A stretch of 25,080 nt of DNA from Chlamydiota bacterium (lineage in GTDB: Bacteria; Auribacterota; Tritonobacteria; UBA1439). Positions 1,915 through 25,080 of this stretch are shown one piece after another. How positions within the stretch are numbered: the stretch's first letter is position 1; each line of letters starts with the position of its first letter. The position numbers were made by a program, and so were the translations under genes. Below the pieces are notes generated by a model. It ran no database searches, was not told where the DNA came from, and saw nothing but the letters and a program-made list of their open reading frames with translations. The stretch lies in NCBI GenBank assembly GCA_037133055.1, contig JBAXOY010000040.1, positions 1 to 25,080 of the forward strand, given 5' to 3'.

Positions 1915-1961
1915 ACCCCAAATCCAGCCCGCCCCAGGCCTTTGTCCGAAATTAGGGGTTA

Positions 1962-3091: not shown

Positions 3092-3097
3092 GCGATA

Positions 3098-3127
3098 AGT
3101 GTATCCTCAGCCCGTCGCTCCGGACAA
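3098..3127 (-). promoter_or_regulatory. Promoter of a probably leaderless rhodanese-doxX transcript
   Basis: TTGTCC-18 nt-TACACT, then 6 nt to the ATG at 3091; no SD sequence. Confidence 0.55.
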
Positions 3128-3191
3128 GCATTTCTGTTGCCCCCCGCGCGGGCACTGTGTTACCCTCGCCGCACCATAGGAGTGCGGCGCC

Positions 3192-3326: not shown

Positions 3327-3337
3327 GCCCCACGTGC

Positions 3338-4378: not shown

Positions 4379-4458
4379 GGTTTCCGGGCCTCCATTCAGG
4401 CGGCGCCGCGGCCGCGCCACTATTATTCTCATATCCGGTTGAAACACAAGCCTAAAAT

Positions 4459-5430: not shown

Positions 5431-5535
5431 CGGGTTCACCACGAAGGACACAGGAAAAACATCCGTGAGGGCGTGCGGGCGTGTCGGCGTACAATGCTTT
5501 GGCGTCCGACACGGATGAACGCGGATTTTCTTTTA

Positions 5536-5560
5536 TCCCTCCCCCTCAGGGGGGAGGGGA
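5536..5560. repeat. REP-like GC-rich hairpin, copy 1 (between convergent genes)
   Basis: TCCCTCCCCCTCAGGGGGGAGGGGA. Its reverse complement closely matches the hairpin at 17889-17911. Confidence 0.65.
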
Positions 5561-5605
5561 TTCTGCGAGCCTCTTGTCGCTTGGCCGGGACCCAGGCGGC
5601 CCGCT

Positions 5606-7225: not shown

Positions 7226-7272
7226 AGCGAGCTCACTGTACAAGAATTATGGCCGGATGTGCAAATGGTATA

Positions 7273-8511
7273 TCACCCCCCGATCCCCTCCCCCCAGAAG
7301 AGGGCCTCGAACGGCACCCCGGCGCCCTCGAGGATTTCGCAGGCGGCGGCGATCCCCGTCCTCCCCTCGCGCACCGGGTGCCCCACCTCGAGGAGGTGCC
7401 CGGGAAGCACGCGCGCGGGCCGCACCGCCTCGATGCACCGCCGCATCGCCTCGCGGTCGTCCTCGTCGGGGGAGACGCCGCCGCACTTCGGGATGAGGAG
7501 ATCGACCGGGCCGGCGTGCGCGACCGGCCCCGCGTAATCGTGGTCCGCGAGGTGGAGGACGCGGGGGCCCCCGGTGAACTCCGCCTCGTAGTATCGCATC
7601 GGGAGCGCGCCACCCCCGCCGTAGACATGTCGCCCCTCGTGCGCGCGGACGCGCACGCCGCCGGGGAGGTCGAGGACGTCCCCCGGGGACGCGTGGCGCA
7701 CCCCCCGCGCAAACAGGCACGAGAGCTCGGCCGGAACGACCGCCGCCTTCCCGGCCCCCCGCATTCTCGCGACGAGCTCGACGTCGAGGTGGTCGAGATG
7801 CCGGTGGGAGACGAGGAGGATGTCGAGGCACGAAACGAGCCCCTCAACGAGCTGCGCGGGGATGTCCCACCAGACGTTCAGGCTCCCGCGCGCGCTCACG
7901 ACGTCGAACCCGACCACCGCGCCGGGCGTCTCGATGATGAAGCCGTGGTTGTAGACAAGCCAGGCGCGCCACCCGTCGCCCCCCCGCCCGCCGCGGAGCC
8001 GCTCGACGAGACGGGCGAGCCGCCGCCTGAACAGTTCTTGGACGGCCGGTTTCCCCGAGGCCCCCTCCCTGAGGAGCACCGAATCGAGCGCGCCGAGGGC
8101 CGCGCGTCTGCCGGCGTGACGGTTCCACCGCGGCGGATGTTTCGCGAGGGCGGCCTCCGCCGCGGCGATAAACCGCCCGTCCGCGGCCGACCGGGCGATG
8201 GCGAAGACGCTGTTGGTCCAGCCGGATGCGTCCGCCTCGACGCGGGGGTTGCCCGGGTCCACGATCCAGCGCCCCCCGTCGATCACGTATTTGTAGCGGT
8301 GCGTTCCCGAAAGGAGACCCCGCTTCTCGAACCGCCACGACTCGTCGCGCCGCCTCGCCATCGGATCAGCGATGGGGTTCCAGGAGTTGAAATCACCGGC
8401 CACGCAGACGGACCGGTATCTCTCGTCCCTCAGGACGAACACCGCCCGCCCCTCCCGGCCGGAGACGATGACGCCCGGGCAGGCGGATTCGGCGTCCTGT
8501 CTTTTCTTCAT
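7273..8511 (-). CDS. CBM48/AMPK-beta-type glycogen-binding domain fused to an MBL-fold metallo-hydrolase
   Basis: N-terminal VCVAGDFNSW...GTHRYKYVIDGGRWIVDPGNP...NSVF (CBM48-like). C-terminal YNHGFIIET, SHRHLDHLD (HxHxDH), HLAD, LPGH (MBL fold). Confidence 0.85.
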   Translation of the reverse strand: MKKRQDAESACPGVIVSGREGRAVFVLRDERYRSVCVAGDFNSWNPIADPMARRRDESWRFEKRGLLSGTHRYKYVIDGGRWIVDPGNPRVEADASGWTNSVFAIARSAADGRFIAAAEAALAKHPPRWNRHAGRRAALGALDSVLLREGASGKPAVQELFRRRLARLVERLRGGRGGDGWRAWLVYNHGFIIETPGAVVGFDVVSARGSLNVWWDIPAQLVEGLVSCLDILLVSHRHLDHLDVELVARMRGAGKAAVVPAELSCLFARGVRHASPGDVLDLPGGVRVRAHEGRHVYGGGGALPMRYYEAEFTGGPRVLHLADHDYAGPVAHAGPVDLLIPKCGGVSPDEDDREAMRRCIEAVRPARVLPGHLLEVGHPVREGRTGIAAACEILEGAGVPFEALFWGEGIGG

Positions 8512-8521
8512 CTGGGATGCT

Positions 8522-8529
8522 ATTATAAT
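8522..8529. promoter_or_regulatory. Palindromic ATTATAAT giving a perfect -10 box on both strands
   Basis: TATAAT on + (8524-8529) and on - (8522-8527), inside the 47-bp gap between divergent genes. Confidence 0.6.
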
Positions 8530-8558
8530 CCATCGATCCTGCGAGGAGGAGCATTTCC

Positions 8559-11120
8559 ATGAAAAAAGTCGTGCGCTACACGGTGGTCCCTCACCTTCCC
8601 GAGCGGCTGAAGCCGCTCCTCGACATCGCCTACAATCTCTGGTGGTGCTGGAACCCGGATGCCGCCGAGCTGTTCCGCGGCCTCGATCCCGCCCTCTGGA
8701 GGGCGAACGGACACAACCCGGTGAAGATGCTGGGGTCGCTCGGCGCCGAGGATATCGACCGGCTCCTCAAGAACGACGCCCACCTCGCGCGGATGGACCG
8801 CGTGGCGGAGGAGCTGAAGGGCTACCTCGAGCACGGCACCTGGTACCAGAAGGAGCACGGCGACCACCTGGGCAGGACCATCGCCTACCTCTCGGCCGAG
8901 TTCGGCGTCCACGAGTGCCTGCCCCTGTACTCGGGGGGCCTCGGGGTCCTCGCCGGCGATTACCTCAAGTCCGCGAGCGAGATCGGCCTCCCGCTCATCG
9001 GGGTGGGGCTCGCATACCGGTTCGGCTACTTCCGCCAGTACCTGAACCTCGACGGCTGGCAGCAGGAGACCTACCCGGAGAACGACTTCTACAACATGCC
9101 GATGGCGCTCGTGAAGAACGCGAAGGGCGCCCCGATCGAGGTGGACGTACCGTTCCCGGGGAGGTCGGTGTACGTCCACATCTGGAAGGTCCAGGTAGGC
9201 AGGGTGCCGCTCTACCTCCTGGACACGAACCTCGACAGGAACTCCGGCGAGGACTCCAACATCACCTCCCACCTCTACGGCGGGGGCCCCGAGATGCGGA
9301 TCAAGCAGGAGATCGTCCTGGGGATCGGGGGGATCAGGGCCCTCGCGGCCATGGGCTGCCCCCCCACCGTGACGCACATGAACGAGGGGCACTCGGCGTT
9401 CATGGCGCTCGAGCGGACCCGGCACCTGATGGAGAAGCACTCCCTCTCCTTCGAGGAGGCGCGCGGGCTCGTCACCTCGACGAGCGTCTTCACCACGCAC
9501 ACGGCGGTCCCCGCCGGCATCGACCGGTTCGACGCCGACCTGATCAAGAAATATTTCGCGCACTACTGCAAGAAGCTCGATATCACCGTCGATACCCTCC
9601 TCGACCTCGGCCGCGAGAAACCCGGCGACGGCGGCGAGCCATTTTCGATGGCGGTGCTCGCCTGCCGGCTCGCCTCCTCCATCAACGGCGTGAGCAAGCT
9701 GCACGGGGAGATTTCCCGGGCCATGTGGCAGCGCCTCTGGCCGGAGGTCCCCCTGGACGAGGTTCCCATCGGGCATGTCAAGAACGGCATCCACACCCCC
9801 ACCTGGCTCTCCGACGAGATGGTCCGCCTCTACGACCGCTACATGGGGACGCGGTGGCGCTACGAGCCGGAGAACAAAAGCGTCTGGGAGCAGATCGAAA
9901 AAATCCCCGACGCCGAGCTCTGGGGCAGCCACCAGCGGCTGAAGGAGCGGCTCGTGGGGTACGTCCGCGCGAGGCTCCAGGAGCAGCTGAAGGGCATGGG
10001 GGCGCACAGCTCCCGCATCGCGGAGGCGGGCGAGGCGCTCGACCCCGGGGCGCTCACGATAGGGTTCGCGCGCCGGTTCGCCACCTACAAGCGGGCGACC
10101 CTCCTCATGCGCGACCCGGAGCGGCTGGCGCGGCTCATCGCCGGCGCGGGCAGGCCCGTGCAGTTCATCTTTGCCGGCAAGTCGCACCCCGCGGACGAGG
10201 GGGGCAAGAAGCTCATCAGGGAGATCGTCCACCTCTCGGAGAAGGAGCCGTTCAGGAACAGGGTCATGTTCCTCGAGAACTACGACATGGGCCTCGCCCG
10301 GCACCTGGTCGCGGGGGTCGACGTCTGGCTCAACACCCCGCGGCGGCCCCTCGAGGCGAGCGGGACGAGCGGGATGAAGGTGGTCCCCAACGGCGGCCTG
10401 ACGGTGAGCTCCCTCGACGGCTGGTGGCCCGAGGGGTACAACGGCGAGAACGGATGGGCGATCGGGAGCGGCGAAGAGTACGACGACGACGCGTACCAGG
10501 ACCAGGTGGAGAGCCTGGCGCTCTACGAGCTCCTCGAGAAGGAGATCATCCCGCTCTACTACAAGCGCGGCAAGGACGGCCTGCCGCGCGAGTGGGTCGA
10601 GATCATGAAGAACTCCATACGCACCCTCTGCCCGGTGTTCAACACCAACCGGATGGCCGGCGAGTACACCGAGATGATGTACCTTCCGGCGCTCGCCCAC
10701 TGGAAGCGGGTCGCCGCTGGCGGCATGGCGGAGGCGAGGGAGCTCGCCGCGTGGAAGGCCGCGCTCCGGGCGCAGTGGAGCGGCATCGCGATCAAGGACG
10801 TGAAGATCTCAAGCATCTCGGAGCTGCATGTCGGCGCCGAGCTCCCGGTGGAGGTCCAGGTGGAGCTCGGGAAGGCGGCCCCGGAGGACGTGACCGTCGA
10901 GCTCTTCCACGGTCCGCTCAGCGCAGACGGCGAGATCGTGTCCGGGAAGTCGACGCCGCTCAAGCACAGGCGGTCCGACAAGAACCGTTTCCACTCCTAT
11001 ACGGGCGCGATCCCCTCGACGGCGAGCGGGCAGTTCGGCTTTTCCGTGCGGGTCCTCCCCGCGCACGCGGGTCTCACCCACCGTTTCGAGACGGGGCTGA
11101 TCCACTGGTGGCGCGACTGA
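8559..11120 (+). CDS. glgP: Alpha-glucan (glycogen/maltodextrin) phosphorylase, GT35
   Basis: YSGGLGVLAGD, HMNEGH, FTTHT, GFARRFATYKRA, PLP-lysine motif EASGTSGMK; GAGGAGG RBS. Confidence 0.97.
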   Translation: MKKVVRYTVVPHLPERLKPLLDIAYNLWWCWNPDAAELFRGLDPALWRANGHNPVKMLGSLGAEDIDRLLKNDAHLARMDRVAEELKGYLEHGTWYQKEHGDHLGRTIAYLSAEFGVHECLPLYSGGLGVLAGDYLKSASEIGLPLIGVGLAYRFGYFRQYLNLDGWQQETYPENDFYNMPMALVKNAKGAPIEVDVPFPGRSVYVHIWKVQVGRVPLYLLDTNLDRNSGEDSNITSHLYGGGPEMRIKQEIVLGIGGIRALAAMGCPPTVTHMNEGHSAFMALERTRHLMEKHSLSFEEARGLVTSTSVFTTHTAVPAGIDRFDADLIKKYFAHYCKKLDITVDTLLDLGREKPGDGGEPFSMAVLACRLASSINGVSKLHGEISRAMWQRLWPEVPLDEVPIGHVKNGIHTPTWLSDEMVRLYDRYMGTRWRYEPENKSVWEQIEKIPDAELWGSHQRLKERLVGYVRARLQEQLKGMGAHSSRIAEAGEALDPGALTIGFARRFATYKRATLLMRDPERLARLIAGAGRPVQFIFAGKSHPADEGGKKLIREIVHLSEKEPFRNRVMFLENYDMGLARHLVAGVDVWLNTPRRPLEASGTSGMKVVPNGGLTVSSLDGWWPEGYNGENGWAIGSGEEYDDDAYQDQVESLALYELLEKEIIPLYYKRGKDGLPREWVEIMKNSIRTLCPVFNTNRMAGEYTEMMYLPALAHWKRVAAGGMAEARELAAWKAALRAQWSGIAIKDVKISSISELHVGAELPVEVQVELGKAAPEDVTVELFHGPLSADGEIVSGKSTPLKHRRSDKNRFHSYTGAIPSTASGQFGFSVRVLPAHAGLTHRFETGLIHWWRD

Positions 11121-11151
11121 GCGGGCGGCGCAAGGGACGAACCATCCCCCA

Positions 11152-12114
11152 TTATAGTGCGGAGGAAACCCTCCCGCGCCACCAGTCGAGGATCTCACGG
11201 AGCGTCTCCTCGATCGGATGCTCCGGCCTCCACCCGGTCGCCCGCGCGAACTTCGCGCAGTCGCCGTAGAAGACCGGGACATCGGATTCTCTGAGGCGCG
11301 CCGTGTCCTGCCGCACCTCGATCCGGACGGAGGAGAGGGCGAGGAGTATCCCGAGCACCTCCCCGATCCGGCGCGGGCGCCCCATGCAGATATTGTAGGT
11401 CTCGCCGGGCGCGCACTTCTCCGCGGCGAGCGCGTACGCCCGCACCATGTCGCGGACATCCGTGAAATCCCGCTCCGCGTCGAGGTTCCCCACATCGATG
11501 ACCGGCTTCTTCTTCCCCGCCTCGATCTCGGCGATCTGGCGGGCAAACGTGGAGGTGACGAACGCGGGGCTCTGCCGCGGACCGATGTGGTTGAACGGCC
11601 TCACGATCACGGCGGGGACGGCGTGCGCCCTCCCGTAGCAGCGGGCGGCCTCCTCGGCGCAGAGCTTGGAGAGGGCGTAGATGTTCCCGGGGGCGGGGCC
11701 GCGGAGTTCCGCGATGGGCATCTCCCCCGGCGGGACCTTCCCATAGACCTCCGAAGAGCTCACGACGACGACCCGGGCCGCGGGGGCGTGCCGCCGGCAC
11801 GCCTCGAGCAGGTTGAGCGTGCCCCCGGCATTCACGTCGAGGGCCTCGCGCGGCGCCTTTTCCGCGGCGGGGACAAACGACACCGCAGCGAGGTGAAAGA
11901 CCGCCCCGGGGGAGGCCGATGCGACGGCGCCCGCCATCGCGCCGGAGTCGAGGATGTCTGCGTCCTCGACGCGCAGGACGCCGATCCCCGCCAGGTTATC
12001 GCGCGGCACGCCCGGGCGCTCGAGGCCCACGACCTCCCAGCCGTGCGCGCAGAGGTGCTCGGCGAGGTGGCTCCCCGCGAAACCGGCGATTCCGGTGATA
12101 AGCGCTTTTTTCAT
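11152..12114 (-). CDS. rmd: GDP-4-dehydro-6-deoxy-D-mannose reductase (Rmd-like extended SDR)
   Basis: ITGIAGFAG, SSSEVYG, YALSK, RPFNHIGPRQ, GNLDAERDFTDVRD; directly downstream of gmd. The SDR family is secure; the exact product is inferred from context. Confidence 0.75.
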   Translation of the reverse strand: MKKALITGIAGFAGSHLAEHLCAHGWEVVGLERPGVPRDNLAGIGVLRVEDADILDSGAMAGAVASASPGAVFHLAAVSFVPAAEKAPREALDVNAGGTLNLLEACRRHAPAARVVVVSSSEVYGKVPPGEMPIAELRGPAPGNIYALSKLCAEEAARCYGRAHAVPAVIVRPFNHIGPRQSPAFVTSTFARQIAEIEAGKKKPVIDVGNLDAERDFTDVRDMVRAYALAAEKCAPGETYNICMGRPRRIGEVLGILLALSSVRIEVRQDTARLRESDVPVFYGDCAKFARATGWRPEHPIEETLREILDWWRGRVSSAL

Positions 12115-12139
12115 GCGTATGCTTCGTGATCGTGAAAAG

Positions 12140-13156
<1,017 letters not shown>

Positions 13157-13181
13157 TTAATCAGTGCTGCTGCACGGGAGT

Positions 13182-13209
13182 AGTATAGCGCGTATCGCGT
13201 TATTGTCCA
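13182..13209 (-). promoter_or_regulatory. Candidate promoter for gmd-rmd
   Basis: Minus strand TGGACA-16 nt-TATACT. Confidence 0.45.
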
Positions 13210-13275
13210 CCCCCCCGAAAGCCCCCACTTTAATCTGCATCACCCGGCTTCCTATTGGGATTTTCTGTTGGGATC

Positions 13276-13422
13276 TGGGATTTGGGATTTGGGATTTCCC
13301 TTGTACCATGGCTTGCTGTTGGGATGTGCGGTTGGGATTTGGGATTTGGGATTTCCCTTGTACCATGGCTTGCTGTTGGGATGTGCGGTTGGGATTTGGG
13401 ATTTGGGATTTGGGATTTCCCT
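13276..13422. repeat. 57-bp tandem duplication built from GGGATTT heptamer clusters
   Basis: Identical units at 13276-13332 and 13333-13389, followed by (GGGATTT)4-CCCT. Degenerate heptamers extend left to about 13256. Confidence 0.92.
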
Positions 13423-13423
13423 G

Positions 13424-13432
13424 TGGTATCAT
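13424..13432 (+). promoter_or_regulatory. Extended -10 promoter of a probably leaderless metX operon
   Basis: TG-G-TATCAT, 8 nt before the ATG at 13441; no SD sequence. Confidence 0.55.
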
Positions 13433-13440
13433 CTATCGCC

Positions 13441-14598
13441 ATGCAGAAGGATCCGGTCGGCATCGTCGAGACGAAGTCTTTCACCTTCGCCGCCCCTCCC
13501 GGGGGTCTCGCGCTCGAGTGCGGCGTCACCCTCGGACCGGTGACGCTCGCCTACGAGACCTACGGCACACTCGACGCCGAACGCTCCAACGCCGTCCTCA
13601 TCCTCCACGCCCTCTCCGGCGACGCCCACGCCGCAGGCTGCCACGCGGACGACACCCGCGCCGGCTGGTGGGACATCATGATCGGGCCCGGAAAGGCGTT
13701 CGACACGGACCGCTATTTCGTCATCTGCGCCAACTGCCTCGGCGGCTGCATGGGCTCGACCGGCCCCTCCTCGACGAACCCCGTGACGGGGAGGCCCTAC
13801 GCCATGGACTTCCCGGTCATCACCATCGGCGACATGGTGAAGGCGCAGAAGGCGCTCGTCGAGCACCTGGGGATCGGGAAGCTCCTCGCGGTGGCGGGCG
13901 GGTCGATGGGCGGAATGGAGGCCCTCGAGTGGGTCACCGCCTACCCCGACGCCGTCCGCGCGGCCATCCCCATCGCCACGACGAGCCACCTCTCCGCCCA
14001 AGGGATCGCCTTCAACGAGGTGGGGCGCCAGGCGATCATGGCCGACCCGAACTGGAAGGGAGGCGCCTACTACGACGGGGAGCCCCCCAACCGCGGGCTC
14101 GCGATCGCGCGCATGATCGGCCACATCACCTACCTGAGCGACGAGTCGATGCGCAAGAAGTTCGGCCGGAGGCTCCAGAACCGGGTGGAGCTCTCCTTCG
14201 ACTTCCTGACCGACTTCCAGGTCGAGAGCTACCTCCACCACCAGGGCGACATCTTCACCCAGCGCTTCGACGCCAACTCCTACCTCTACATCACGAAGGC
14301 GATCGACTATTTCGATCTCGCGGAGAAGGGGGGCGGCTCTCTCGAGAAGGCGCTCGCGAACGTCACGGCCTCGTTCCTCATCATCGCCTTCTCCTCCGAC
14401 TGGCTCTACCCGGCGTACCAGAACAAGGAGATCGCCGACGCGCTCCGCGCGCACAACCTCGAGGTGAGCTACTGCGTCCTCGACTCGAGCTATGGCCACG
14501 ACGCATTCCTCCTCGAGTCCACGCACCAGACGCACCTCATCTCGCACTTCCTCCGCCACATCTACGACGAGCACGTGCACGGGAGCCACTGCCGATGA
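13441..14598 (+). CDS. metX: Homoserine O-acyl(acetyl)transferase
   Basis: [25 protein letters not shown], nucleophile GGSMGG, RFDANSY, SDWLYP, GHDAFL. Start set at 13441 because the upstream extension is only the repeat. Confidence 0.95.
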
Positions 14599-15215
14599 GC
14601 CCGGAGATGAACGCCCTGCGCCTCAGGCCCGACCTCCTGAAGATCTACGAGATCATCCGGCCCGGGAGCCGGGTCCTCGACCTCGGCGCCGGAAGCGGCG
14701 ACCTGCTGAAGGCCCTCGAGCGGCACAAGGGGGCCACGGTCCGCGGGGTCGAGATCTCCGAGGAGGGGATCATGGAGTGCATCGCCAAGGGCATCCCCAT
14801 CTACCAGAGCAACCTCGACGAGGGGCTCGCCGACTACGGGGAGCAGTCGTTCGACTACGTCATTCTCAGCCAGACGCTCCAGCAGGTGCACAAGCCGAAG
14901 CTCATCCTCCAGGAGGTCGTCAGGGTGGGGAGGAGCGGCATCGTGAGCATCCCGAACTTCGGCCACTGGTTCGTCCGCTTCCAGCTCCTCTTCCGCGGGA
15001 CGATGCCGAAGACGACCTACATCCCCTACGCCTGGTACGAGTCCCCGAACATCCACCTCCTGAGCATCAGGGACTTCCGCGAGCTCTGCGCCGGGGTCGG
15101 CATCCGCATCCTGAACGAGTGGACGGTCGGGTCCGGGAGGGGGCTGCCCGGCGGGCTGATGCGCGCCTGGCCGAACATGCTCGCGCCGCTGGGGGTGTTC
15201 GAGATAAGCAGATAA
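14595..15215 (+). CDS. metW: Methionine biosynthesis protein MetW
   Basis: [42 protein letters not shown] overlap with the metX stop. Confidence 0.93.
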
Positions 15216-15229
15216 AGGAGGTTCCCCGC

Positions 15230-16282
15230 ATGAACCCGCACGATTATTTCGAGAGCCAGATAGGGCAGATCCTCTGCCCGGTTTCAGATTTCAAGAAGGG
15301 GGTCCTCGACACGACTTACCTGATGCGCCACGACGGGAGCTTCGTCTACGTCGAGGGATACTACCACCCCCCGGGGAAGGTGATCGGAAAGATCATCTAC
15401 TGCCCGAAGGAGGGCGGGAAGATCGACATCCACGGGCGCGCCTACGCGAGCATGGTGAAGGGGGAGAAAGACGGGCAGACGACCTACACCCCCCACGACG
15501 AGCAGATACGGCAGCACTACCTCATCGATCCCACGCTGGAGAAAGAGGACCTGATCGTCACGAAGTTCCACGTGGTCTTCCCCATGTCCGGGTTCCGCGG
15601 ATACTTCAACGATCGCCTCTCCCTCTTCTACGCGATGGGCAAGTTTCCCCTCGTGGGCAAGGCGGTCGAGAACGTGAGCCGCTTCCTCGAGATCCCGATC
15701 AGCAGGCTCGGAATCACCGGCTCGACCGCCCTCGGACGCCGGGGCGAGCACTCCGACGTGGACCTGGTCATCTTCGGGACCGTCGCGCAGAACCGGGAGA
15801 CGGCGGCCCGGATCGCCGACCACATCCACCGCACCCCCGAGGCGCGGGTGGTGGAGTTCGGCAAGTTCTGGCCGCTCCGGTTCAACTACCAGGGGATCGA
15901 GATGTGCCCCGCGTACGTCTACATGGATCTCGACGAGGTCCCCTTGAGGAACTGCACGGTGGAGCTCGTGAAGGACAACGTGGAGGCGTTCGGGACCGTC
16001 AGCGACGACACCCACGCGATCTACAACCCGCCGGTGGTGACCCTCTCCGAGGTATGGATCGACGGAAAGCGCGCCGACGACATCACCTTCATTGTCTACG
16101 ACGGGTCTCTGCGCGGAGAGTTCTATCCCAGGGAGCGCCTGGGGGTGCGGGGACGGCTCGTCCGCGTGAAGAAGGACGGGAAGGAGTTCCTCGCCCTCTT
16201 TGCGTTCGACGCGGGCGACATCACGCGCCAGCAGTTCGTGAAGGGCGTGCCCACGCTCGCCCCCCCTCCGCCCAAGGCATGA
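15230..16282 (+). CDS. Pol-beta superfamily nucleotidyltransferase-domain protein, resembling an uncharacterised mostly archaeal family
   Basis: GITGSTALG...SDVDLVIFG (hG[GS]-DxD motif), N-terminal V.GY.HP...Y.P, beta-rich C-terminus. AAAGGAGG RBS overlaps the metW stop. Confidence 0.78.
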   Translation: MNPHDYFESQIGQILCPVSDFKKGVLDTTYLMRHDGSFVYVEGYYHPPGKVIGKIIYCPKEGGKIDIHGRAYASMVKGEKDGQTTYTPHDEQIRQHYLIDPTLEKEDLIVTKFHVVFPMSGFRGYFNDRLSLFYAMGKFPLVGKAVENVSRFLEIPISRLGITGSTALGRRGEHSDVDLVIFGTVAQNRETAARIADHIHRTPEARVVEFGKFWPLRFNYQGIEMCPAYVYMDLDEVPLRNCTVELVKDNVEAFGTVSDDTHAIYNPPVVTLSEVWIDGKRADDITFIVYDGSLRGEFYPRERLGVRGRLVRVKKDGKEFLALFAFDAGDITRQQFVKGVPTLAPPPPKA

Positions 16283-16400
16283 CGGCTTTGCCCGTCCCGG
16301 GAAGTATCGACGCGACGGGGTGTCGGCGACACAGAAGCGTAGAAGCCGCCCATTCGCCGCTTCGCCCTTCCGCCATGTCGGCTTTCACGGGATTTGGGAT

Positions 16401-17864
16401 TTATTGATGCGCCCCGGTCCCCCTGACCTTCGGCGCGGTGCGCGCGTACTCCGCGAAGAGCTCCGAGAGGCGCTGGATATCCGCAAGGACCCCGGGCGCG
16501 TCCACCCGCGTGAACCGGTAGTCGTCGAGGAGCATCTCCCCCCCCGCGGCGACGTAGCGCGCCTCGCTTCCGTTCGCCGCCCAGATGAGGTTCTCCGCCA
16601 CGTTGTCGAGCCTTGTCGGCGTGAGGTTCGCGCCCCGCAGGTCGATGAGCACGAATTCCGCGTCGCGCCCCGGCTCGAGCGACCCCACGTTCAGACCCAG
16701 CATCCGCGCCGGCTCGACGGTGATGAGCTCGAGCATTTTCTGCGCGGGGAGGAGCGTCGCGTCCGCATGCAGCGCCTTCTGGTACTGGGAGGCGCAGCGG
16801 GCGGCGCTCAGGATGTTCTGGTTATCGGCGCTCCCCGACCCGTCGGTCGAGACGGCGACGGGGATCCCCATCTCCATCATCCGGACGATCGGCGGCATCC
16901 CCGAGCCGAGGATGGTGTTCGCGAGAGGGTTGTGGACGACCCTCGCGCCGGTGTCGCGCAGGATCTCGAGGTCGCGGTCGGTGCAGTTCACCTGGTGCGC
17001 GAGAATGGTGTCCTTGTCGAGGAAGTCGATGCTCTTCGCGTACTCCACCTCGGTCATCCCGTAGGTCTCCGTGAACCACCGCGTCGTCTTCGGCTCCTCC
17101 GAGGAGTGGATGTGGATGAGCGTGCCATGGTCGCGCGACCATTTCTTCAGCCCCTTGAGGATCTCGGGCCCGTTCGAAAAGAACTGGTCCGGCCCGGGGA
17201 TGATCCGCACGCGCGGCACCGCGGCGAACTCCCGCGCGTACCCGTCCACGCGCGCGACCGCCCCCTCCGGCGCGTCGAGGATGCGGGCGTCGTAGTGCCG
17301 GTCCTGGCTCCCGACCGCGATGGTGAGCCGGGTGCCCGCCTCGCGGTTCGCCTCGACGAGGTCCCGGACGTTGTACTTGCTGAAGTTGCAGTGGTGCGTG
17401 AGGGCGGAGGTGATGCCGTAGGAGACGTCGTCGAGGCGCGCCTTCCGGTATGCGACCGCGTTCGGCGAGCGGCCGAACTCCTTCGCGAGCCCCTCCGCAT
17501 TCTCCGCCAGGAACCCGGTGAACGGGTTCACCGCGTTGTCGAGCCACGCGGTGAGCGGCTGATCCTTGGCGACGCCGATGATGGCGGATTCGTGGTCGTG
17601 CCCGTGCGCCTTCACGAAGCCGGGGAGAAGGACGCCGTTCAGGCAGGGGATCTTTTCCCCCGGGGCCTCCCCCACCACTCGTAGATCCCCCTTGTAGCAG
17701 GCGAGGATCCGCTCCCCGATCTCGGGCGTGTACCGCCCCGTCTCGATGATCCGGTCCCCTTCCGTGAGGACGTATCCGTCCTCGATGCGCGTATCCCTCC
17801 CCGCCGCGTCGCTCATCGGGAGCATGAACCGCGCGCGGATGAGAATATGACCCGGCCTTTTCAT
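16401..17864 (-). CDS. Amidohydrolase family deaminase (MTA/SAH- or guanine-deaminase-like)
   Basis: LLPGFVKAHGH (HxH), HIHSSE, LAHQV, HNPLAN..LGSG, STDGSGS, GSLEPG. Confidence 0.88.
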   Translation of the reverse strand: MKRPGHILIRARFMLPMSDAAGRDTRIEDGYVLTEGDRIIETGRYTPEIGERILACYKGDLRVVGEAPGEKIPCLNGVLLPGFVKAHGHDHESAIIGVAKDQPLTAWLDNAVNPFTGFLAENAEGLAKEFGRSPNAVAYRKARLDDVSYGITSALTHHCNFSKYNVRDLVEANREAGTRLTIAVGSQDRHYDARILDAPEGAVARVDGYAREFAAVPRVRIIPGPDQFFSNGPEILKGLKKWSRDHGTLIHIHSSEEPKTTRWFTETYGMTEVEYAKSIDFLDKDTILAHQVNCTDRDLEILRDTGARVVHNPLANTILGSGMPPIVRMMEMGIPVAVSTDGSGSADNQNILSAARCASQYQKALHADATLLPAQKMLELITVEPARMLGLNVGSLEPGRDAEFVLIDLRGANLTPTRLDNVAENLIWAANGSEARYVAAGGEMLLDDYRFTRVDAPGVLADIQRLSELFAEYARTAPKVRGTGAHQ

Positions 17865-17888
17865 GGTCGCTCCATTTCCCGCCTTATT

Positions 17889-17926
17889 CCCTCCCCCCTT
17901 GAGGGGGAGGGTCAGGGTAGGGGGTG
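17889..17926. repeat. REP-like GC-rich hairpin, copy 2, with GGGTCAGGGTAGGGGGTG tail
   Basis: CCCTCCCCCC-TTGA-GGGGGAGGG followed by a G-rich tail. Confidence 0.7.
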
Positions 17927-17971
17927 AAAACGCCCCCTCATTAAGACACGTGACAGTCTACAACAATCTCC

Positions 17972-18000
17972 TTGCCGGATAAAGCCCGTTGCCCTATGAT
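17972..18000 (+). promoter_or_regulatory. sigma70-type promoter
   Basis: TTGCCG-17 nt-TATGAT, 30 nt before the ATG at 18031. Confidence 0.7.
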
Positions 18001-18030
18001 GTCCCGCTTTCCAAGGGAGACCTCATCGGA

Positions 18031-18879
18031 ATGATTCTTCTCTCGATCGGCTCGCTGCGCTTCTTCGGCCTGGACCGCGTGTTCCTGATCGCGAAGGACC
18101 TCGGCTTCGACGGCGTCGAGGTCATCGTGGACGACCGCTGGGACACCGCCGATCCCGGCTACCTCCGCACGCTCTCGACGCGGTACGGCCTCCCCATCTC
18201 GAGCCTCCACTCCCCCTTCAGTTTCATCGAGACCCCCGCGTGGGGGACCGACCCGGTGGAACGGATGCGTATGTCGGTCAGGCTCGCGGAGGAGCTCGGA
18301 AGCGAGATCCTCGTCATCCACCTCTCATTCTTCGCCGAAGACCGCTACGCCCGGTGGGTGCGGGACGAGCTGCCCCTGTGGCAGGAGAATACAGGCGTGA
18401 AGCTCGCGGTCGAGAACATGCCGCACGCCTACAAGGTGTTCGGGAAGTTGGGGATCCGCCTCGGGATGGGGACATTCTATGCCGTGGACCGCGGAAAATG
18501 GCGCAACCGGCTGCTGCGGCCCTTCAGCCGGGACTGTCACATCGACAACACCTTCAGGAACCTGCTGCGCTACCGGTACCACGTGCTCGACACCACGCAC
18601 CTCGCAACCGCGGGGCTCGACCCGATCGAGGCGTACGAGAAGATGAAGCGCGGCCTCGCCCTCATCCACGTGTCGAACTACGACGGGCGCGAGCACCAGC
18701 CGCTCTCTGCGGGGCGGATCGACATGCGCGGCTTTCTCACGCACATCGCGCGCGACGGGTACAGGGGGCACGTGACGCTCGAGCTCATGCCCGACAACTT
18801 CCCCGACCGGTCCGAATCCGTCGCCCGCACAATACTCGCCGAGGACCTCGCCCTCCTCCGCTCCTGCCTCGCGCACTGA
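18031..18879 (+). CDS. Sugar phosphate isomerase/epimerase (xylose isomerase-like/AP endonuclease 2 TIM barrel)
   Basis: GFDGVEV, SLHSP, LAVENMP, LDTTH, IHVSN, EH.P...G, VTLEL; AAGGGAG RBS. Confidence 0.85.
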   Translation: MILLSIGSLRFFGLDRVFLIAKDLGFDGVEVIVDDRWDTADPGYLRTLSTRYGLPISSLHSPFSFIETPAWGTDPVERMRMSVRLAEELGSEILVIHLSFFAEDRYARWVRDELPLWQENTGVKLAVENMPHAYKVFGKLGIRLGMGTFYAVDRGKWRNRLLRPFSRDCHIDNTFRNLLRYRYHVLDTTHLATAGLDPIEAYEKMKRGLALIHVSNYDGREHQPLSAGRIDMRGFLTHIARDGYRGHVTLELMPDNFPDRSESVARTILAEDLALLRSCLAH

Positions 18880-18931
18880 TCCGCTCGCAAGCGGCAGGCG
18901 GCGCGCCGTCGCCCATTACTCGGACAGGCTC

Positions 18932-20587
18932 CTAGCGGACACGGAGGACCTCGGTGTCCTCCGCGTTGGCGATCCAGTTGATGTCGCCGTTCAGGAACGG
19001 CGTCTGCGCGTTCACCGCCCCCCCTTGGAGAACGTAGTTGCCGGCCGGGATATTCCTGAAGGATGCGCTGAACAACTGCAGGTTGCTTTCCGCGCCCGGA
19101 ACGGTGATCTGCACCGGCACATACTTCTTCCTCCGCTTCCGCTGCAGGTATGCGCTGGCGGTGGGGGTGAGACGGTTGCCCTCCGTGAGATACAGCCTCT
19201 GCCCCGAGGGAAGGGTGAGGTAAAATCCGGGGTAGAACGGCGTGGGTATCGCCTGCGTCACGTCCACCAGGATGACGATGGTGTCCGTGGTGGAGAACTG
19301 GGTCTTGTTCGGCTTGATATCCACCGTGTGGACCACGGGCTGGTCGCTCATCGCCTGAATGGTGATGACCGCCTCGGCCGCGTTGCCCTGCACGCCGGTG
19401 CTGAAGCCCCCCACGTCGTCGAAGGAGAAGCCGTAGCAGAAACCCTGGTACGCGGCCTCGTGCAGGACCTTCGAATAGGAGTTCGTCGGCGACTGCGCGT
19501 AAAACAGGCTGGGGTCGTTCCACCAGGCGGCGGTGTCCGGTATGCCGCTCTGACCGTCGTACAGGACCCCCCTGTTCAGCGCCGCGCCCATCGTCGTGAT
19601 GATCCCCTGTTTCCCGATACTGTCTGACCCCGTGGTGAACAGATAGCCCGGGCCGTCGCATCCGAAGATGTGCGCGCTTTGCCCGGCGAGGTTGTTGATG
19701 GTGACCGTCTCACCGGTGCCGCCAACGGTGAATGTGAATACCCCCGCGACGACCTGGCCGGTCGCACTCCATGCGGGTGAATTCGGGAGGCTCGTGAGCG
19801 TCAGCAGGTTCGTCGTGTAATAGTTCCAGCACGTGTTGACATACGAGTCGAAGTAACCCGCAAACGGGCTGGTATCCGCCAGCTTGTTCGGCGCGACGAA
19901 CCTGACGGCCGTGGAGCCGTTCTGCACCATCCCGTACTGCCACGGGGCGGGGAGGGCCTGCAGATTGCCCATGATCGCGCCCCTCGGCAGAGTGAAGCCG
20001 CGCGACATGGAGGTCCCGTCGAGGAGATTCAGGTCGAGCATGAACGAGATGCTGAAGAAGTCCACCGTGGTGGTGTTCAGGAACGGATCCTGTCCGTTCT
20101 GCCAGTCCAGTTCAATCTTGTCGAAGATGAGGGGGTAGTTCGGAAGGGTCGGGTCCACGGCGGACGGCTCCTCCAAAGCGGGGCCGGGGTTCACGTGGAA
20201 ATATGCCGGCTGTTCGAAGGACACGTAGATCCTCCCGCTGATGATGTGGGGCATGTTGAAACTGTACGTGTGGAGCCCCTCCGGGGTCAGTTCGGAGAGT
20301 TTCAATGCGTAGCCGGTGTACGTCGGGTGCGACCACGGCCCGCCGGGCGGCACGACGGTGTTGTCGCTCTCGGATATCGCGACCCACGTCGAGGTCGCCA
20401 GGTCCACGTGCCCGTTATTTCCCGTGCCGGAAGGGTCCAGGCCCAGCATCTGGACATAGACCTGGTTGTCGGAATAGGCGTCCGAATCGTTCAGGATCGT
20501 CACCTTCAGCAGATTGGCCGACTGGCCGAGCGCCGCTGACGTCGTGACGAGCATGACCGCGCACAGATATGAAGATGTCCTTCTCAT
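18932..20587 (-). CDS. Secreted GH64 family beta-1,3-glucanase with an extra C-terminal beta-rich domain
   Basis: Signal peptide, SGRIYVS, FDKIE and NTTTVDFFSI (positions of the catalytic Glu/Asp pair), NSYSKVLH, YGFSFDDV; AAAGGAGG RBS. Confidence 0.88.
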   Translation of the reverse strand: MRRTSSYLCAVMLVTTSAALGQSANLLKVTILNDSDAYSDNQVYVQMLGLDPSGTGNNGHVDLATSTWVAISESDNTVVPPGGPWSHPTYTGYALKLSELTPEGLHTYSFNMPHIISGRIYVSFEQPAYFHVNPGPALEEPSAVDPTLPNYPLIFDKIELDWQNGQDPFLNTTTVDFFSISFMLDLNLLDGTSMSRGFTLPRGAIMGNLQALPAPWQYGMVQNGSTAVRFVAPNKLADTSPFAGYFDSYVNTCWNYYTTNLLTLTSLPNSPAWSATGQVVAGVFTFTVGGTGETVTINNLAGQSAHIFGCDGPGYLFTTGSDSIGKQGIITTMGAALNRGVLYDGQSGIPDTAAWWNDPSLFYAQSPTNSYSKVLHEAAYQGFCYGFSFDDVGGFSTGVQGNAAEAVITIQAMSDQPVVHTVDIKPNKTQFSTTDTIVILVDVTQAIPTPFYPGFYLTLPSGQRLYLTEGNRLTPTASAYLQRKRRKKYVPVQITVPGAESNLQLFSASFRNIPAGNYVLQGGAVNAQTPFLNGDINWIANAEDTEVLRVR

Positions 20588-20708: not shown

Positions 20709-20783
20709 TCACGTCTTTGAACTCTCCACGACCTTGTAGAGCGCGCTCTTCGCGATGCCGCTCAACTGCGCGGCGAGCTTGAC
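20709..20783 (-). pseudogene. Orphan 3' gene fragment resembling the RsmI C-terminal helix-turn-helix
   Basis: Translated by hand: VKLAAQLSGIAKSALYKVVESSKT*. Host-like codons, no convincing start with RBS, and it sits at the compositional boundary. Confidence 0.5.
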
Positions 20784-20832: not shown

Positions 20833-23800
20833 CTAAACGAAGGCTTCGCTGCAGATGATTCGGGGTATTACCCGATCTTCCATGGCCAGACTTCGCTGGG
20901 CCGAAACATCTTTAAGACTATGCTGGCTGTAGATTATGGCCAGGTTCTTGAGGAGCCCTTCACCCGTTACGCTATTGCGGCGCAGTTGATTCAGTTCTCG
21001 TTTCACCGCGCCTGTCAGAGGTCCACGGAACGCTTTTTCCAGAACATTAACGTTCTGCTTGATGTCCTCGTCTTGAGTGGCTTCAAACAGGATTCGCAGT
21101 TCCCGTAAAACGTAAAGCTGGCCGTGGGTCAGGTTGGCCGTGTAGGTTCGCTCGGCCTCGCGGTGCCGAACCTCCTCCGCGAACTTGCGTTGAATCGCCA
21201 TGACTGCCTTGTTGTATCCGTCCGGCAACGGCGCGGCTTTGGCATCCGGCGCGCATTTGACCGCGCCGACAACTTTGGGAATATCCCGGGAAACAACCTC
21301 GCTTTCCTCGTCGAGTAGAAACAACTGCTGAAAACGCCCGGCCTGGCAGAAGACATACAGCCCGCGTTGCAGTGATGGCCGCGCTGTTCTGATACCGTCC
21401 CGCAGATTGGCAATCCGTTCGTATTCGCCGGGATTATCCTTTCGCAATTGCCGCAGGATTTCCTCGGCTTCGTTCAGATCGAGAAACTCGTCATCAGCGC
21501 CGCCCCACAGGTCCAACTGCCCGGGGGTGTTGCCGCGCGTCTCATAGATCGCGTACATGGCTTCCGGGTTAAGCTTCTCGGTCCGGTCCAGAATCTCGGA
21601 ATCCTCTCCGATGGTGTCGTGAATCTCCTGAACGCGATTGTGGAGCTTTTCCCTCAGACCGAGATTCTTATCCAGCGTGGTCTCGGGCAGGAAGTTAAAG
21701 CCGAATATCCGCTCGTGCTCCGAGCCGATACGATCAATACGCCCGAAACGCTGAATAAGGCGGACCGGGTTCCAGTGCAGGTCGTAATTGATGATGTTGT
21801 CGCAGTCTTGAAGGTTCAAACCTTCGGCGAGGACGTCGGTCGCAATCACCATCATCAGTTCCGCCTCGTCCCTGGCAAAACGATATTCCGGGTTGGCTTT
21901 CGGCGCAAAGCGGCCGACGACCTTTTCCTTGCTCTTGTCGCCGCTGAAAATGACCTCGATGTCGGGGTGTTTTCCATCGGGATTCAGGTTGGAAAATAAA
22001 TACTTCGCCGTGTCCGCGTACTGCGTGAAGATCAGGCGTTTCGAGCCCTTCAACGGTTTTTGGGCAAGCCGTTTTTTTAGGGTCTGGAGCTTCGCGTCCT
22101 TCTCGGGGGTGATGGGTAACACCAGTTTCAGAATCCTCTGAAGCAGTTCGATGTCATGCTCGATATGCGCGCGGAGAGACTTCAGATCGAAATCGTTTAC
22201 ATCGTACCGCTTGGACACCTCCCGGAGAGCGTCAATAAGGTCGCCTTCCTCCAGGATATCGCTTCCGTAAAGGATGTACTGCGCGTCCTCCCCCGCCGGG
22301 ACAACACCCTTCGCCAGTGAAGCGACAAAGGATTGATGAATTTTTAAGAGTCGTTTGACGGTCTCGCGGAAGGCGAAGACGCTGGATTCAAACCGTTTGA
22401 AGAGCAGGACTCGCATCAGCCCCCGAAGGTTCGCCCCGGCCCGTTGAAGGCTGGCGTATGGTTCTTTCTTCTGCTTTTCCGCGTTGACATAATTCCAGAG
22501 ACCATATCGCGCATAGGTAAGTTCGCCATCCTGGATAGCCTTTGCCGGTTTACCCTTCCGTGGTTTGCCGAGGTAGCCGCGTAATTCCTGATAAAGTCCC
22601 TGATAGGTATCTTCGATGCTGTACTCGATGGTTTCCAGCTCGCGTTTGGGAAAAAACTGGTGTTTTCCGCCGACCAGCACGTAAGCCTTCCGTGTGCCCT
22701 GCACGTAGTCATAAAACCGGTTCGGGTCCACGGGCTCATGGGTTTCAGCATCAAAACCATACCAGCGCAGAATATGCTGGCGGGTCCGGCGAACGAGGAT
22801 ATTTGCCAGCAAGTCAGGGAGTTTGCGTTCGGCCTTGTCAATCAGCTTGAAGTATTCCTTCAGGTTCGGCGGATCAATGGGCAAGTCCGTGCGGTCATCC
22901 TGGTGAAACAGCTTGATCTGGTAGTACACGTCCCAGGCGCTCTTGTTCCGGGGCGTCGCCGTCAAGAAACAGCAGCGCCGACCGGTGGAAAGAAACGTCT
23001 GAACGACCTTGTATCTTTGTGTATCCGGGTGTCTTAGATTGTGGCTTTCATCCACCAGCACGAAATCCCGATCCTTGAAATGGAAGTCATTGAGTAGCCG
23101 GGTGATGCCCTCTTCCTCGTCTTCGCGCAGGAATCCCATCGAAAGCACGCGGGCATTGAGTTGGTAAACCTCGTTGTAGCGCTCCCACATCTCCACAAGC
23201 GGAGCCGGGCAGATGATCAAAGGACGCGCGTGGTCGGTGCGCTCAAAGTGCTTCACGATCGCCGCGCCGATGTAACTCTTTCCCAAGCCCACCACGTCGG
23301 ACACAAACGCGCCGCCATAGTCCCTGACAATTTGAACCGCCTGCCGGACCGCCACCTTCTGAAAGCTCGCCAGCTTATGGAAGATATCGTCGTCCCAAAG
23401 CAATTCCTGTTCGTCTTCACTCTCCAGCCGGTCGCGCACGAGGGCGTAGAGCGTTTTCATGTAGATATCATACGGCCTGACCTGCGCCGCCGCCCATGAT
23501 TCCTTGAGTTCGGTCATCAGCGTTTCGTCGAACTCCCGCGCCTCTTTCCAGAGGCCATCAAACCAGCGGGCAAGTTCGGCGTGATTCTGGTTGCCCTGCA
23601 CGACCACATTCAACTCCGTGTTGTGTGTTAGCCCGGCAAGGGTCAGGTTGGAGGAACCTACAACCGCAATGCCTATCTCGTGCCGCTCCACTTCCTGGCC
23701 CACCAGATCGAACACCTTGCCGTAGTCACAGATATACGCCTTCGCATGGAGTCGGCCCTTTGTATAGACGCGCACTTTCAGGTGCTTTTCTTCGATCATC

Positions 23801-24180
23801 CGGATCAGCCCGGCGATCAATTCCTCTGCCTCATCCGTCTGGTCCATCCACTCAACGGCGTTACGGAGATTCCCGGCCGTTTCCTCAACCATCTTTCCGG
23901 CCTCGGTACGCTTCGGGTAAACCTGCTTCTCGATTTCCTCGGCGGCCAGGTCCAGCCGCTTGTATCCCTCCGCCAACATTTCAACGGTTTCTTTGTTAGT
24001 CGTGTTGCCGATCAGCAACCGGAGCTCTTTCAAGTTCAGGAGCCGCTTGGCAACACTGGTCAGACCGGACAGGAAAAGGTAGCCCACCGCGAACCGGGCC
24101 CGCTCGCTGGAACCAAGCATCTGATTGAGGTGGTCAACCAGTTTCTCCGATCTATTGTCGATAATGTCGTGAGTAGGCAT
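20833..24180 (-). CDS. PLD-family nuclease fused to a SNF2-like superfamily 2 helicase
   Basis: AVGYLFLSG, LHAKAYICD (HxKxxxxD), GSSNLT, Walker A DVVGLGKS, VDESH, LTATP, IFTQYADTA, TDVLAEGLNLQ, NYDLHWNPVRLIQRFGRIDRIG. Confidence 0.93.
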   Translation of the reverse strand: MPTHDIIDNRSEKLVDHLNQMLGSSERARFAVGYLFLSGLTSVAKRLLNLKELRLLIGNTTNKETVEMLAEGYKRLDLAAEEIEKQVYPKRTEAGKMVEETAGNLRNAVEWMDQTDEAEELIAGLIRMIEEKHLKVRVYTKGRLHAKAYICDYGKVFDLVGQEVERHEIGIAVVGSSNLTLAGLTHNTELNVVVQGNQNHAELARWFDGLWKEAREFDETLMTELKESWAAAQVRPYDIYMKTLYALVRDRLESEDEQELLWDDDIFHKLASFQKVAVRQAVQIVRDYGGAFVSDVVGLGKSYIGAAIVKHFERTDHARPLIICPAPLVEMWERYNEVYQLNARVLSMGFLREDEEEGITRLLNDFHFKDRDFVLVDESHNLRHPDTQRYKVVQTFLSTGRRCCFLTATPRNKSAWDVYYQIKLFHQDDRTDLPIDPPNLKEYFKLIDKAERKLPDLLANILVRRTRQHILRWYGFDAETHEPVDPNRFYDYVQGTRKAYVLVGGKHQFFPKRELETIEYSIEDTYQGLYQELRGYLGKPRKGKPAKAIQDGELTYARYGLWNYVNAEKQKKEPYASLQRAGANLRGLMRVLLFKRFESSVFAFRETVKRLLKIHQSFVASLAKGVVPAGEDAQYILYGSDILEEGDLIDALREVSKRYDVNDFDLKSLRAHIEHDIELLQRILKLVLPITPEKDAKLQTLKKRLAQKPLKGSKRLIFTQYADTAKYLFSNLNPDGKHPDIEVIFSGDKSKEKVVGRFAPKANPEYRFARDEAELMMVIATDVLAEGLNLQDCDNIINYDLHWNPVRLIQRFGRIDRIGSEHERIFGFNFLPETTLDKNLGLREKLHNRVQEIHDTIGEDSEILDRTEKLNPEAMYAIYETRGNTPGQLDLWGGADDEFLDLNEAEEILRQLRKDNPGEYERIANLRDGIRTARPSLQRGLYVFCQAGRFQQLFLLDEESEVVSRDIPKVVGAVKCAPDAKAAPLPDGYNKAVMAIQRKFAEEVRHREAERTYTANLTHGQLYVLRELRILFEATQDEDIKQNVNVLEKAFRGPLTGAVKRELNQLRRNSVTGEGLLKNLAIIYSQHSLKDVSAQRSLAMEDRVIPRIICSEAFV

Positions 24181-24196
24181 GTCTATTCTTTCTGCT

Positions 24197-24228
24197 TCAT
24201 TGTATCAGTCTCGTGGCTCATTGTATCA
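24197..24228 (-). promoter_or_regulatory. Two TGATACAATGA direct repeats 21 bp apart, each containing an extended -10 (TGnTACAAT)
   Basis: TCATTGTATCA on + at 24197-24207 and 24218-24228, upstream of the helicase start. Confidence 0.65.
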
Positions 24229-24311
24229 CCCTCACGCTTTTCTGCGCGAGTTTGAGCATGAAACAATGGACGAGAACCGGGCGCGTTCGCTGAAAATTCG
24301 CCTAACTTTCC

Positions 24312-25080
24312 CTATCCGAGGCAATTGCAGCGCAATCCGTTTCCATCCAAACCAACGGCCTTCCAGATTTCCACACTCTCCTTGCAAAGAGCAATATCAA
24401 TCCTCGGGCTGTGCCGACGGATCTCCTTTGCGATGGCTGAAAACATCTCAAGCCGGCATTCCCTGGGATACCTACGTTTGCCTGCCTCCGGCACCAGAGA
24501 ACCGTTGACCTTGATCAACGGAGATTCCGGGAACCGGGCGCGAATGTGGTTTGTCAGCCCCTCCGCCGGTCGGTATTCCCCGAGCGTAATACGCGTAGGC
24601 CGAACCTGCGAAAATACCTGTTCCACCAGCGCTTCATAGTCCGTTTTCCACGTGGAATACCGGATCACCGGATCAATCCGAAGACGCACTTCATACCCGG
24701 CCTCCTGGACTTTCCTTGCGGCTTTGAGACGCGCCACGGGCGACGGCGTTCGGTGCTCCAAATACCGCCAAACCTTTTCCGTGTTGATGCTGAATGACAC
24801 AATGGTTTGCCCCCCATGTTCGACGCCGAGCAAAGTCTTCACGGAGTCGCTCTTGGTCAGGAAGAGCAGCCGTGTTCTTGGCGCATGTGCCGGCATGAAC
24901 GGCACAATCTGCTCCGCGAAGCCCGTTATCTCGTCCACCGCCAGCGGATCGCCCAGTTCGCCAAGGTTCAGAACCCGCAGCGGACCAGCAATGTTCTCAC
25001 AGTCAAACGCCTCGATCTCCCCGAACATCTTGTCGTAGTTCACGAAGTGCGTAGACATAGGGTTGTTGCGGAAGGTGAGG
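24312..25080 (-). CDS. Spore photoproduct lyase-like radical SAM protein (5' end outside the window)
   Basis: FVNY, GELGDPL, LTKS, SFSIN, LEHRTPS...RLKAA, RIDPVI, LCKE...W match SPL-family motifs. The frame is open to the window edge (LTFRNNPMSTH). The CxxxCxxC motif is expected just outside and was not seen. Confidence 0.8.
   Translation of the reverse strand, partial: LTFRNNPMSTHFVNYDKMFGEIEAFDCENIAGPLRVLNLGELGDPLAVDEITGFAEQIVPFMPAHAPRTRLLFLTKSDSVKTLLGVEHGGQTIVSFSINTEKVWRYLEHRTPSPVARLKAARKVQEAGYEVRLRIDPVIRYSTWKTDYEALVEQVFSQVRPTRITLGEYRPAEGLTNHIRARFPESPLIKVNGSLVPEAGKRRYPRECRLEMFSAIAKEIRRHSPRIDIALCKESVEIWKAVGLDGNGLRCNCLG

Follow-up and report, generated by a model that had tools for sequence, protein, structure and literature searches.

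The closest catalogued relatives of the system described here are the PADLOC candidates PDC-M41 and PDC-M30, in which a TcmP gene (TIGR04474) is paired with a DUF5131 gene. Defence loci often contain TcmP pairs, for which the literature searched, largely without subscription journals, offered no function. DUF5131 proteins and spore photoproduct lyase (SPL) enzymes appear as neighbouring subgroups of Megacluster 5 in the accessible part of PMC9477430. Payne et al. (bioRxiv 10.1101/2024.01.29.577857) report defences embedded in modification systems; the mined systems given in the accessible text are Hma, BREX, DISARM and type I, and the main text, as far as accessible, names neither PDC-M41 nor PDC-M30. 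Here we analyzed a 25,080-nt stretch from a Chlamydiota bacterium (assembly GCA_037133055.1) that comprises the entire contig JBAXOY010000040.1 (C40; hereafter the window) and carries at its right end an SPL-like radical S-adenosylmethionine (SAM) gene next to a PLD-SNF2 helicase gene.

In our preferred reading, to which we assign a probability of roughly 0.5, these two genes stand at the end of an 11.7-kb island that combines a restriction-like methylase-helicase pair with an optional cassette of TcmP and the radical-SAM enzyme, the cassette producing a novel modified base through two successive reactions. The original prediction, made from the window, had proposed the two genes as a candidate pair that stands alone and matches no defence system familiar to its author. 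That pairing is an artefact of a contig break and becomes ordinary once the missing contig (C38) is added: the island continues there with TcmP and an Eco57I-type methylase upstream, and this type IIG-like methylase accounts for the helicase. What is new is an SPL-type partner variant of a catalogued candidate cassette, in a chassis (IIG methylase with PLD-SNF2 helicase, or type III) outside the set mined in the embedding study. Among these pairs the SPL-type variant is the easiest to approach, since a relative of its radical enzyme has been solved and is active on DNA bases, which allows substrate and residues to be guessed; if the enzyme writes a new base, radical chemistry would be added to bacterial DNA marking. 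No functional study of a TcmP plus SPL-type module was present in the literature searched.

The window ends inside an 11,706-bp island

The window contains two co-directional minus-strand open reading frames (ORFs), at 20833-24180 and 24312-25079, separated by a 131-bp spacer (24181-24311). The GC content of this segment is 0.55-0.57, compared with 0.67 in window positions 1-18900 and 0.644 genome-wide, and the original prediction was correct in describing two closely spaced co-directional genes in a lower-GC segment. In relatives the spacer is mostly longer, from 93 to 4792 nt, and holds further cargo genes. The ORF at 24312-25079 is the 3' part of the radical-SAM gene; it matches Pfam SPL (E 3e-23), is open at the contig end and supplies 255 codons, corresponding to residues 123-377. 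The contig break falls inside the gene. The full protein (P0001) is 377 aa and is identical over the 255 residues of the window, while its residues 1-114 match the very end of C38 (positions 25368-25709) at 99%.

The gap between C38 and C40 consists of 21 unassembled bases and contains two of the three cluster cysteines. Bridging records, paired across the two contig ends by length and depth, came from two runs of different studies, of which X2 (not X4) belongs to the same study as a possible source run. An 882-nt record of run X4 has bases 1-130 on the C40 end and bases 152-882 on the C38 end; a 418-nt record of run X2 has bases 1-151 and 173-418 on the two contig ends. In both records 21 bases are missing between the ends, the number that residues 115-122 require to keep the frame. 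Synteny fixes the join as well: in the same-genus genome G002 the order mnmG-parA-parB-rsmI is followed directly by a GH64 gene and the next two genes of the window, an empty site.

The 51-nt 3' end of rsmI is present at C38:18325-18375 and again, as a direct repeat with 50/51 identical positions, at 20782-20732 of the window (20732-20782, minus strand), where it marks the island's right edge. In total the island spans 11,706 bp and contains five genes, in the order Eco57I-type N6-methylase, AlbA/ATPase (588 aa, AlbA2/RecG-type), TcmP, SPL-like radical SAM and PLD-SNF2 helicase. No integrase or mobility gene was identified among the five, and no methylase lies between the helicase and the right edge in the window, as the original prediction had noted. 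In genomes G001 and G005 rsmI is followed by different genes, none of them from the island, and rsmI was not found as a target site in any other locus examined. Insertion of restriction genes with long target duplication, as reported in the accessible part of Furuta, Abe and Kobayashi 2010 (PMC2853133), involves segments of <20 kb with duplications of >30 bp and no integrase, the site being empty in a relative. The present island is alike in its length, its 51-nt repeat, its lack of a mobility gene and the empty site of G002, and differs in that the same signature reappears within it, in the form of relic methylase tails and helicase heads that lie between the cargo genes. No study of the chassis or of recombination scars was found in the literature searched.

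TcmP is the steady partner of the radical-SAM enzyme

We collected 159 loci around relatives of the radical enzyme (79 from genomes, 80 from metagenomes) and kept 147 at ≥50% identity, representing 71 groups at 90%. Neighbours were called with profiles built from the loci, and Pfam, NCBIfam and PADLOC were used to name the representatives. TcmP was located directly upstream of the radical enzyme in 98 of the 132 loci with 500 nt available (50/65 groups). A natural TcmP-radical-SAM fusion was also identified (P0244, 71% identical to P0001), together with a second, distant TcmP fusion in which the long TcmP form carries a wHTH domain. The steady partner of the radical enzyme is TcmP, which lies beyond the contig end here. 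When loci with 7 kb on both sides were analyzed, IIG genes were found near the radical enzyme in 16/28 and type III genes in 4/28 (20/28 in total). The orthologous helicase was found downstream of the radical enzyme in 13 of the 59 loci with 5 kb downstream (4/34 groups); it was at most 400 nt away in two, one of which has a small gene between. An IIG gene was present in all 11 helicase-bearing radical-enzyme loci with 5 kb upstream.

In a reverse test, the helicase was searched for in three phylum samples (401 genomes), blind to the radical enzyme. Two centre genomes and matches of <60% were excluded and 18 loci were read, three of which had the radical enzyme. Upstream sequence of ≥5 kb was available for 11 of these loci, of which nine had an IIG gene, two the radical enzyme and one TcmP. 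Thus, the methylase is the partner of the helicase (9/11) and the radical enzyme is optional (2/11). TcmP and the radical enzyme together form an optional cassette embedded in a restriction island. The proposed link between the radical enzyme and the helicase was not supported, the steady partner of the former being TcmP and that of the latter the IIG methylase. A stand-alone two-gene system, with the radical-SAM protein as writer, the PLD helicase as effector and no methylase, would fit the 13/59 and 3/18 loci in which the two genes do occur together. It is contradicted by the methylase upstream in the same island, a finding that the original prediction had itself named as its refutation, and by the co-occurrence counts: an IIG gene accompanies every such locus with sufficient upstream sequence, close spacing is confined to 2/59 loci, and most helicases lack the enzyme. 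We consider this explanation scarcely credible. A phage origin was also rejected, as radical-enzyme relatives were absent from viral contigs (6 pattern matches, 0 confirmed). The helicase was present at two loci in viral contigs, neither with the radical enzyme, and plasmid matches were all <60%.

Comparison with PADLOC models placed the cassette beside PDC-M41 and PDC-M30. TcmP (271 aa) scored 172 bits against TIGR04474 (cut-off 53) and matched PDC-M41A at E 3.7e-43. The radical enzyme P0001 matched no PADLOC model at E 0.01; the DUF5131 protein of locus L080, used as a control, matched M30B and M41B at E 1e-114. Extension past position 25080, which the original prediction had proposed along with a PADLOC run, added C38 with the IIG methylase and TcmP; both of these matched PADLOC models, and the radical enzyme did not. 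As in PDC-M41 and PDC-M30, TcmP is followed by an adjacent, co-directional, three-cysteine radical-SAM-type gene in a restriction locus; in contrast, the partner here is SPL-type (PF20903) and not DUF5131. As judged from these profile matches, the module is an SPL-type variant of the candidate family PDC-M41/M30 that PADLOC misses. Loci L080 and L116 contain two TcmP cassettes per locus, or DUF5131 near an SPL-type enzyme.

The methylase and helicase form a likely restriction chassis

The helicase gene (20833-24180, minus strand) encodes 1115 aa and is the partner of the Eco57I-type methylase on C38. Its product matches Pfam PLDc_2, SNF2 and Helicase_C, with an HxK(x4)D motif at 145, Walker A at 295-302, DExH at 377 and motif VI at 810; the HKD and SF2 motifs are intact and conserved in 115-119 of 119 homologues. 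The methylase is 1306 aa long, with an Eco57I match (E 1e-36), a TaqI_C domain and the motifs DPACGSG and NPPY, and matches the PADLOC IIG model at E 4.5e-105. No conserved PD-(D/E)xK-like triad was seen in its N-terminal domain, as judged by eye in 15 aligned N-termini. The two proteins are likely a restriction-like defence pair. On their motifs and co-occurrence, the methylase would very probably mark the cell's own DNA at N6 of adenine, and unmarked DNA would be cut by the HKD domain of the translocating helicase.

A type II (Cj0031-like, IIG) enzyme with an adjacent PLD and SNF helicase gene is listed in Table 3 of PMC9881135, in its accessible part, and PADLOC holds a corresponding model, C3a139 HKD+Snf2. 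This pair shares with the island an Eco57I-type N6-methylase and an HKD-SNF2 helicase in one operon; here cargo genes separate the two. No biochemistry for this IIG plus PLD-SNF2 clade was found in the literature searched. The Type-2 BREX-related/Hma systems, as given in the accessible part of PMC12839542, also share an N6-methylase, an HKD-SNF2 helicase effector and embedded back-ups, but the island helicase scores far below the family cut-off. BREX and Type-2 BREX-related/Hma were rejected, with all scores below cut-off and core genes absent; a Pfam search found neither a DUF499 ATPase nor DUF3780 among the five genes of the bounded island. DISARM was likewise rejected, as DrmD scored 145 bits compared with a cut-off of 610 and the island lacks any further drm gene.

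The radical-SAM enzyme has an SPL fold

The cluster motif CxxxCxxC of P0001 comprises C112, C116 and C119 and is invariant in 40/40 aligned sequences. It lies outside the window, although the original prediction, in proposing CxxxCxxC mutants, had implied its presence there. Tyr118 and Tyr120 are retained beside the third motif cysteine, as in SPL. The P0001 model (pLDDT 82.7) gave Foldseek TM scores of 0.72-0.75 to SPL and 0.45 to the next family, and matches in the ESM Atlas were to SPL-family clusters only. Comparison with spore photoproduct lyase itself (TIGR04070; PDB 4FHC series) revealed a common fold (TM 0.74), CxxxCxxC and two tyrosines round the third cysteine. In contrast, P0001 is only about 21-23% identical, scores 128 bits against TIGR04070 (cut-off 400), and its family occurs in non-spore-forming lineages, in a mobile defence context. 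In the P0001 family, an invariant Glu163 takes the place of SPL Cys140. PDB titles of SPL structures list Cys140 mutants. Four extra cysteines (100, 354, 373 and 375), invariant in 40/40 aligned sequences, might be ligands of a second metal. Cys140 we take to be the H-donor of the solved SPL enzyme.

These data support the view that the radical-SAM gene, in its defence setting, encodes a true SPL-fold enzyme, which plausibly does chemistry on bases. This part of the original prediction stands; the casting of the enzyme as writer and the PLD helicase as its effector was not supported. The enzyme could instead be an SPL-like DNA-repair lyase hitch-hiking in restriction islands, in keeping with SPL as the best sequence and fold match and with the retained cluster cysteines and flanking tyrosines. 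The invariant glutamate in place of the H-donor cysteine, the low TIGR04070 score, the tight coupling and fusion to TcmP and a separate SPL-like paralogue in the genome all argue against a repair function, which we regard as very unlikely. The paralogue (C65:11961-12974) is unlinked, 28% identical and carries an N-terminal extension; its relatives are present in about half of 41 related genomes.

TcmP exists as three types, the short and long forms being about 20% identical. The class I SAM-binding motif D41-x-F-x-G-x-G and the motif DPYG are both invariant. Searching the PDB with the TcmP sequence gave chance matches only. A TcmP model compared by VIA-align was closest to Trm1 (Z 14.3, rmsd 4.0, 209 aligned) and RlmJ (Z 14.2, rmsd 4.0, 208), and RlmJ was also nearest by Foldseek. 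The model thus appears to fold like the amine methyltransferases Trm1 and RlmJ, with a lead over spermidine synthase of no more than 1 Z. The DPYG motif presumably resembles a DPFG motif in Trm1, which a paper search did not confirm.

A two-step model for the cassette and its alternatives

In the preferred reading, TcmP would put a SAM-derived group on a purine exocyclic amine. The SPL-fold enzyme would then bind the flipped base, and its 5'-deoxyadenosyl radical would abstract a hydrogen. With glutamate at the H-donor position, the step by which SPL returns the radical during repair would be lost, leaving a net modification. The modified host or invading nucleic acid would back up the restriction pair as a separate layer, and the helicase would not require the mark of the cassette. 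For the cassette as a whole, a TcmP step followed by a radical step, we hold this sequence of events tentatively, at somewhat less than even odds. In a more ambitious form, restriction systems of two types would carry a DNA-hypermodifying plug-in, in which TcmP (or the restriction methylase) methylates and the SPL-fold enzyme builds a new base, rewriting the self mark read by the helicase-nuclease and by phage counter-defences; this we find rather doubtful.

Several results weigh against the two-step reading. Both best fold matches of TcmP act on RNA, and spermidine synthase (Z 13.3) is within 1 Z unit of them, with small-molecule methyltransferases also close; DNA, RNA and nucleotides are therefore all candidate substrates, and various groups could be transferred. 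The unlinked C65 paralogue has the same glutamate at the Cys140 position, so that the Cys-to-Glu change is a trait of the wider group and no sign of defence specialization. TcmP was absent upstream of the radical enzyme in 34/132 loci, neither an IIG nor a type III gene was found in 8/28 long loci, and the radical enzyme was intact in 26/29 loci without TcmP compared with 90/94 with it. We also built a quick tree of 49 tips (of 99; <95% identity, with called context), in which kin are not independent. TcmP type changed 17 times on this tree compared with 21.4 when shuffled, indicating that types swap freely. Intact enzymes without TcmP and this swapping of types point to a loose partnership, which a fixed two-step pathway explains poorly. 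TcmP-less tips with called context were all in IIG loci (13/13), and none of the 16 type III tips lacked TcmP.

These last observations would suit a three-part upgrade in which the radical enzyme converts the methyl mark of the restriction methylase (or of TcmP) to a further modified base, altering recognition by the helicase-nuclease or by a phage counter-measure. Chassis type (IIG versus type III), unlike TcmP type, is stable on the enzyme tree, with 3 changes compared with a shuffled mean of 13.7. The restriction of TcmP-less tips to IIG loci points the same way, as do five draft genomes with a TcmP-less enzyme, four without a detected TcmP and the fifth with a broken one, although these genomes are incomplete and the kin on the tree are not independent. 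Against such a conversion, 9/11 loci of the helicase orthologue lack the radical enzyme. The dN/dS of the radical enzyme was 0.06-0.17 with or without TcmP (17/18 pairs gave a value). However, three genomes in which another cassette has taken the place of TcmP share that cassette at 95-97% identity, whereas their radical enzymes are 74-87% identical, and TcmP losses may therefore be recent swaps; dN/dS then cannot decide on selection without TcmP, as the low values may predate the losses. We judge mark conversion unlikely.

A different role for the cassette would be that of a back-up effector, in which the radical enzyme attacks the nucleic acid of invaders or infected cells (modified phage bases or, in the manner of viperins, nucleotides), leading to breaks or arrest, with TcmP as sensor or brake. 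Embedded BrxU and PrrC act as back-ups in the accessible text of Payne et al. (10.1101/2024.01.29.577857), the same slot carries other effectors in relatives, and the SPL fold binds a damaged dinucleotide according to PDB titles. The intact enzymes in TcmP-less loci speak against TcmP as a needed antitoxin, and the invariant catalytic-looking motifs of TcmP also argue against this role, which we see as possible though not probable.

Relic gene ends mark the joints of cassette stacking

Analysis of the slot between methylase and helicase in relatives revealed Avs3a-like, HEC-03, DRT UG21 reverse transcriptase, TrlF/Ppl-like ATPase and HNH genes. In L020, L072 and L099, a UG21-type reverse transcriptase is directly upstream of TcmP in the same chassis. 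In the island itself, a 52-codon chimera precedes TcmP on C38 and overlaps its start (L173:16397-16555). It consists of a diverged copy, with 14 mismatches, of the first 114 nt of the helicase gene (24067-24180, minus strand), and the last codons of an IIG tail whose type differs from that of the resident methylase. Of 19 other non-duplicate IIG-to-helicase arrays, 8 contained relic methylase tails or helicase heads in a profile search. The search gave 101 head or tail matches, counting the true ends, every one of them on the coding strand; reversed controls gave none. Relic copies between cargo genes were present in L016, L017, L021, L023, L025, L072, L099, L101, L106, L191 and L194; several trace to one ancestral event at the 3' end of the radical enzyme and are not independent. 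In L016, L021, L103, L106, L107 and L108 the last codons of the radical enzyme overlap a relic methylase tail in another frame, and the C-terminus of the enzyme in that clade therefore derives from a recombination joint. Most simply, alleles with different cargo would recombine at their conserved ends, and the work of Furuta et al. supports treating such scars as a known kind. The locus thus records cassette stacking, with relic gene ends marking the joints. A TrlF/Ppl-like ATPase plus AlbA cassette in L046, L047 and L059 is 95-97% identical while the flanking methylases are only about 60% identical, and represents a recent sweep. The relic methylase tails also carry purine-rich stretches, which may be candidate ribosome-binding sites for the next gene.

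The GH64 beta-1,3-glucanase gene that flanks the island (18932-20587, minus strand) is a host gene, 67% identical in G002, and its product is secreted-looking with an extra C-terminal domain. A pentameric ligand-gated ion channel-like gene (3338-4447, minus strand; Neur_chan_LBD E 1e-21) is located near MauE and rhodanese genes. The region 13255-15215 (plus strand) encodes a homoserine acetyltransferase-like hydrolase and MetW; the MetW-containing frame of 683 codons overlaps the hydrolase and probably exceeds the true gene.

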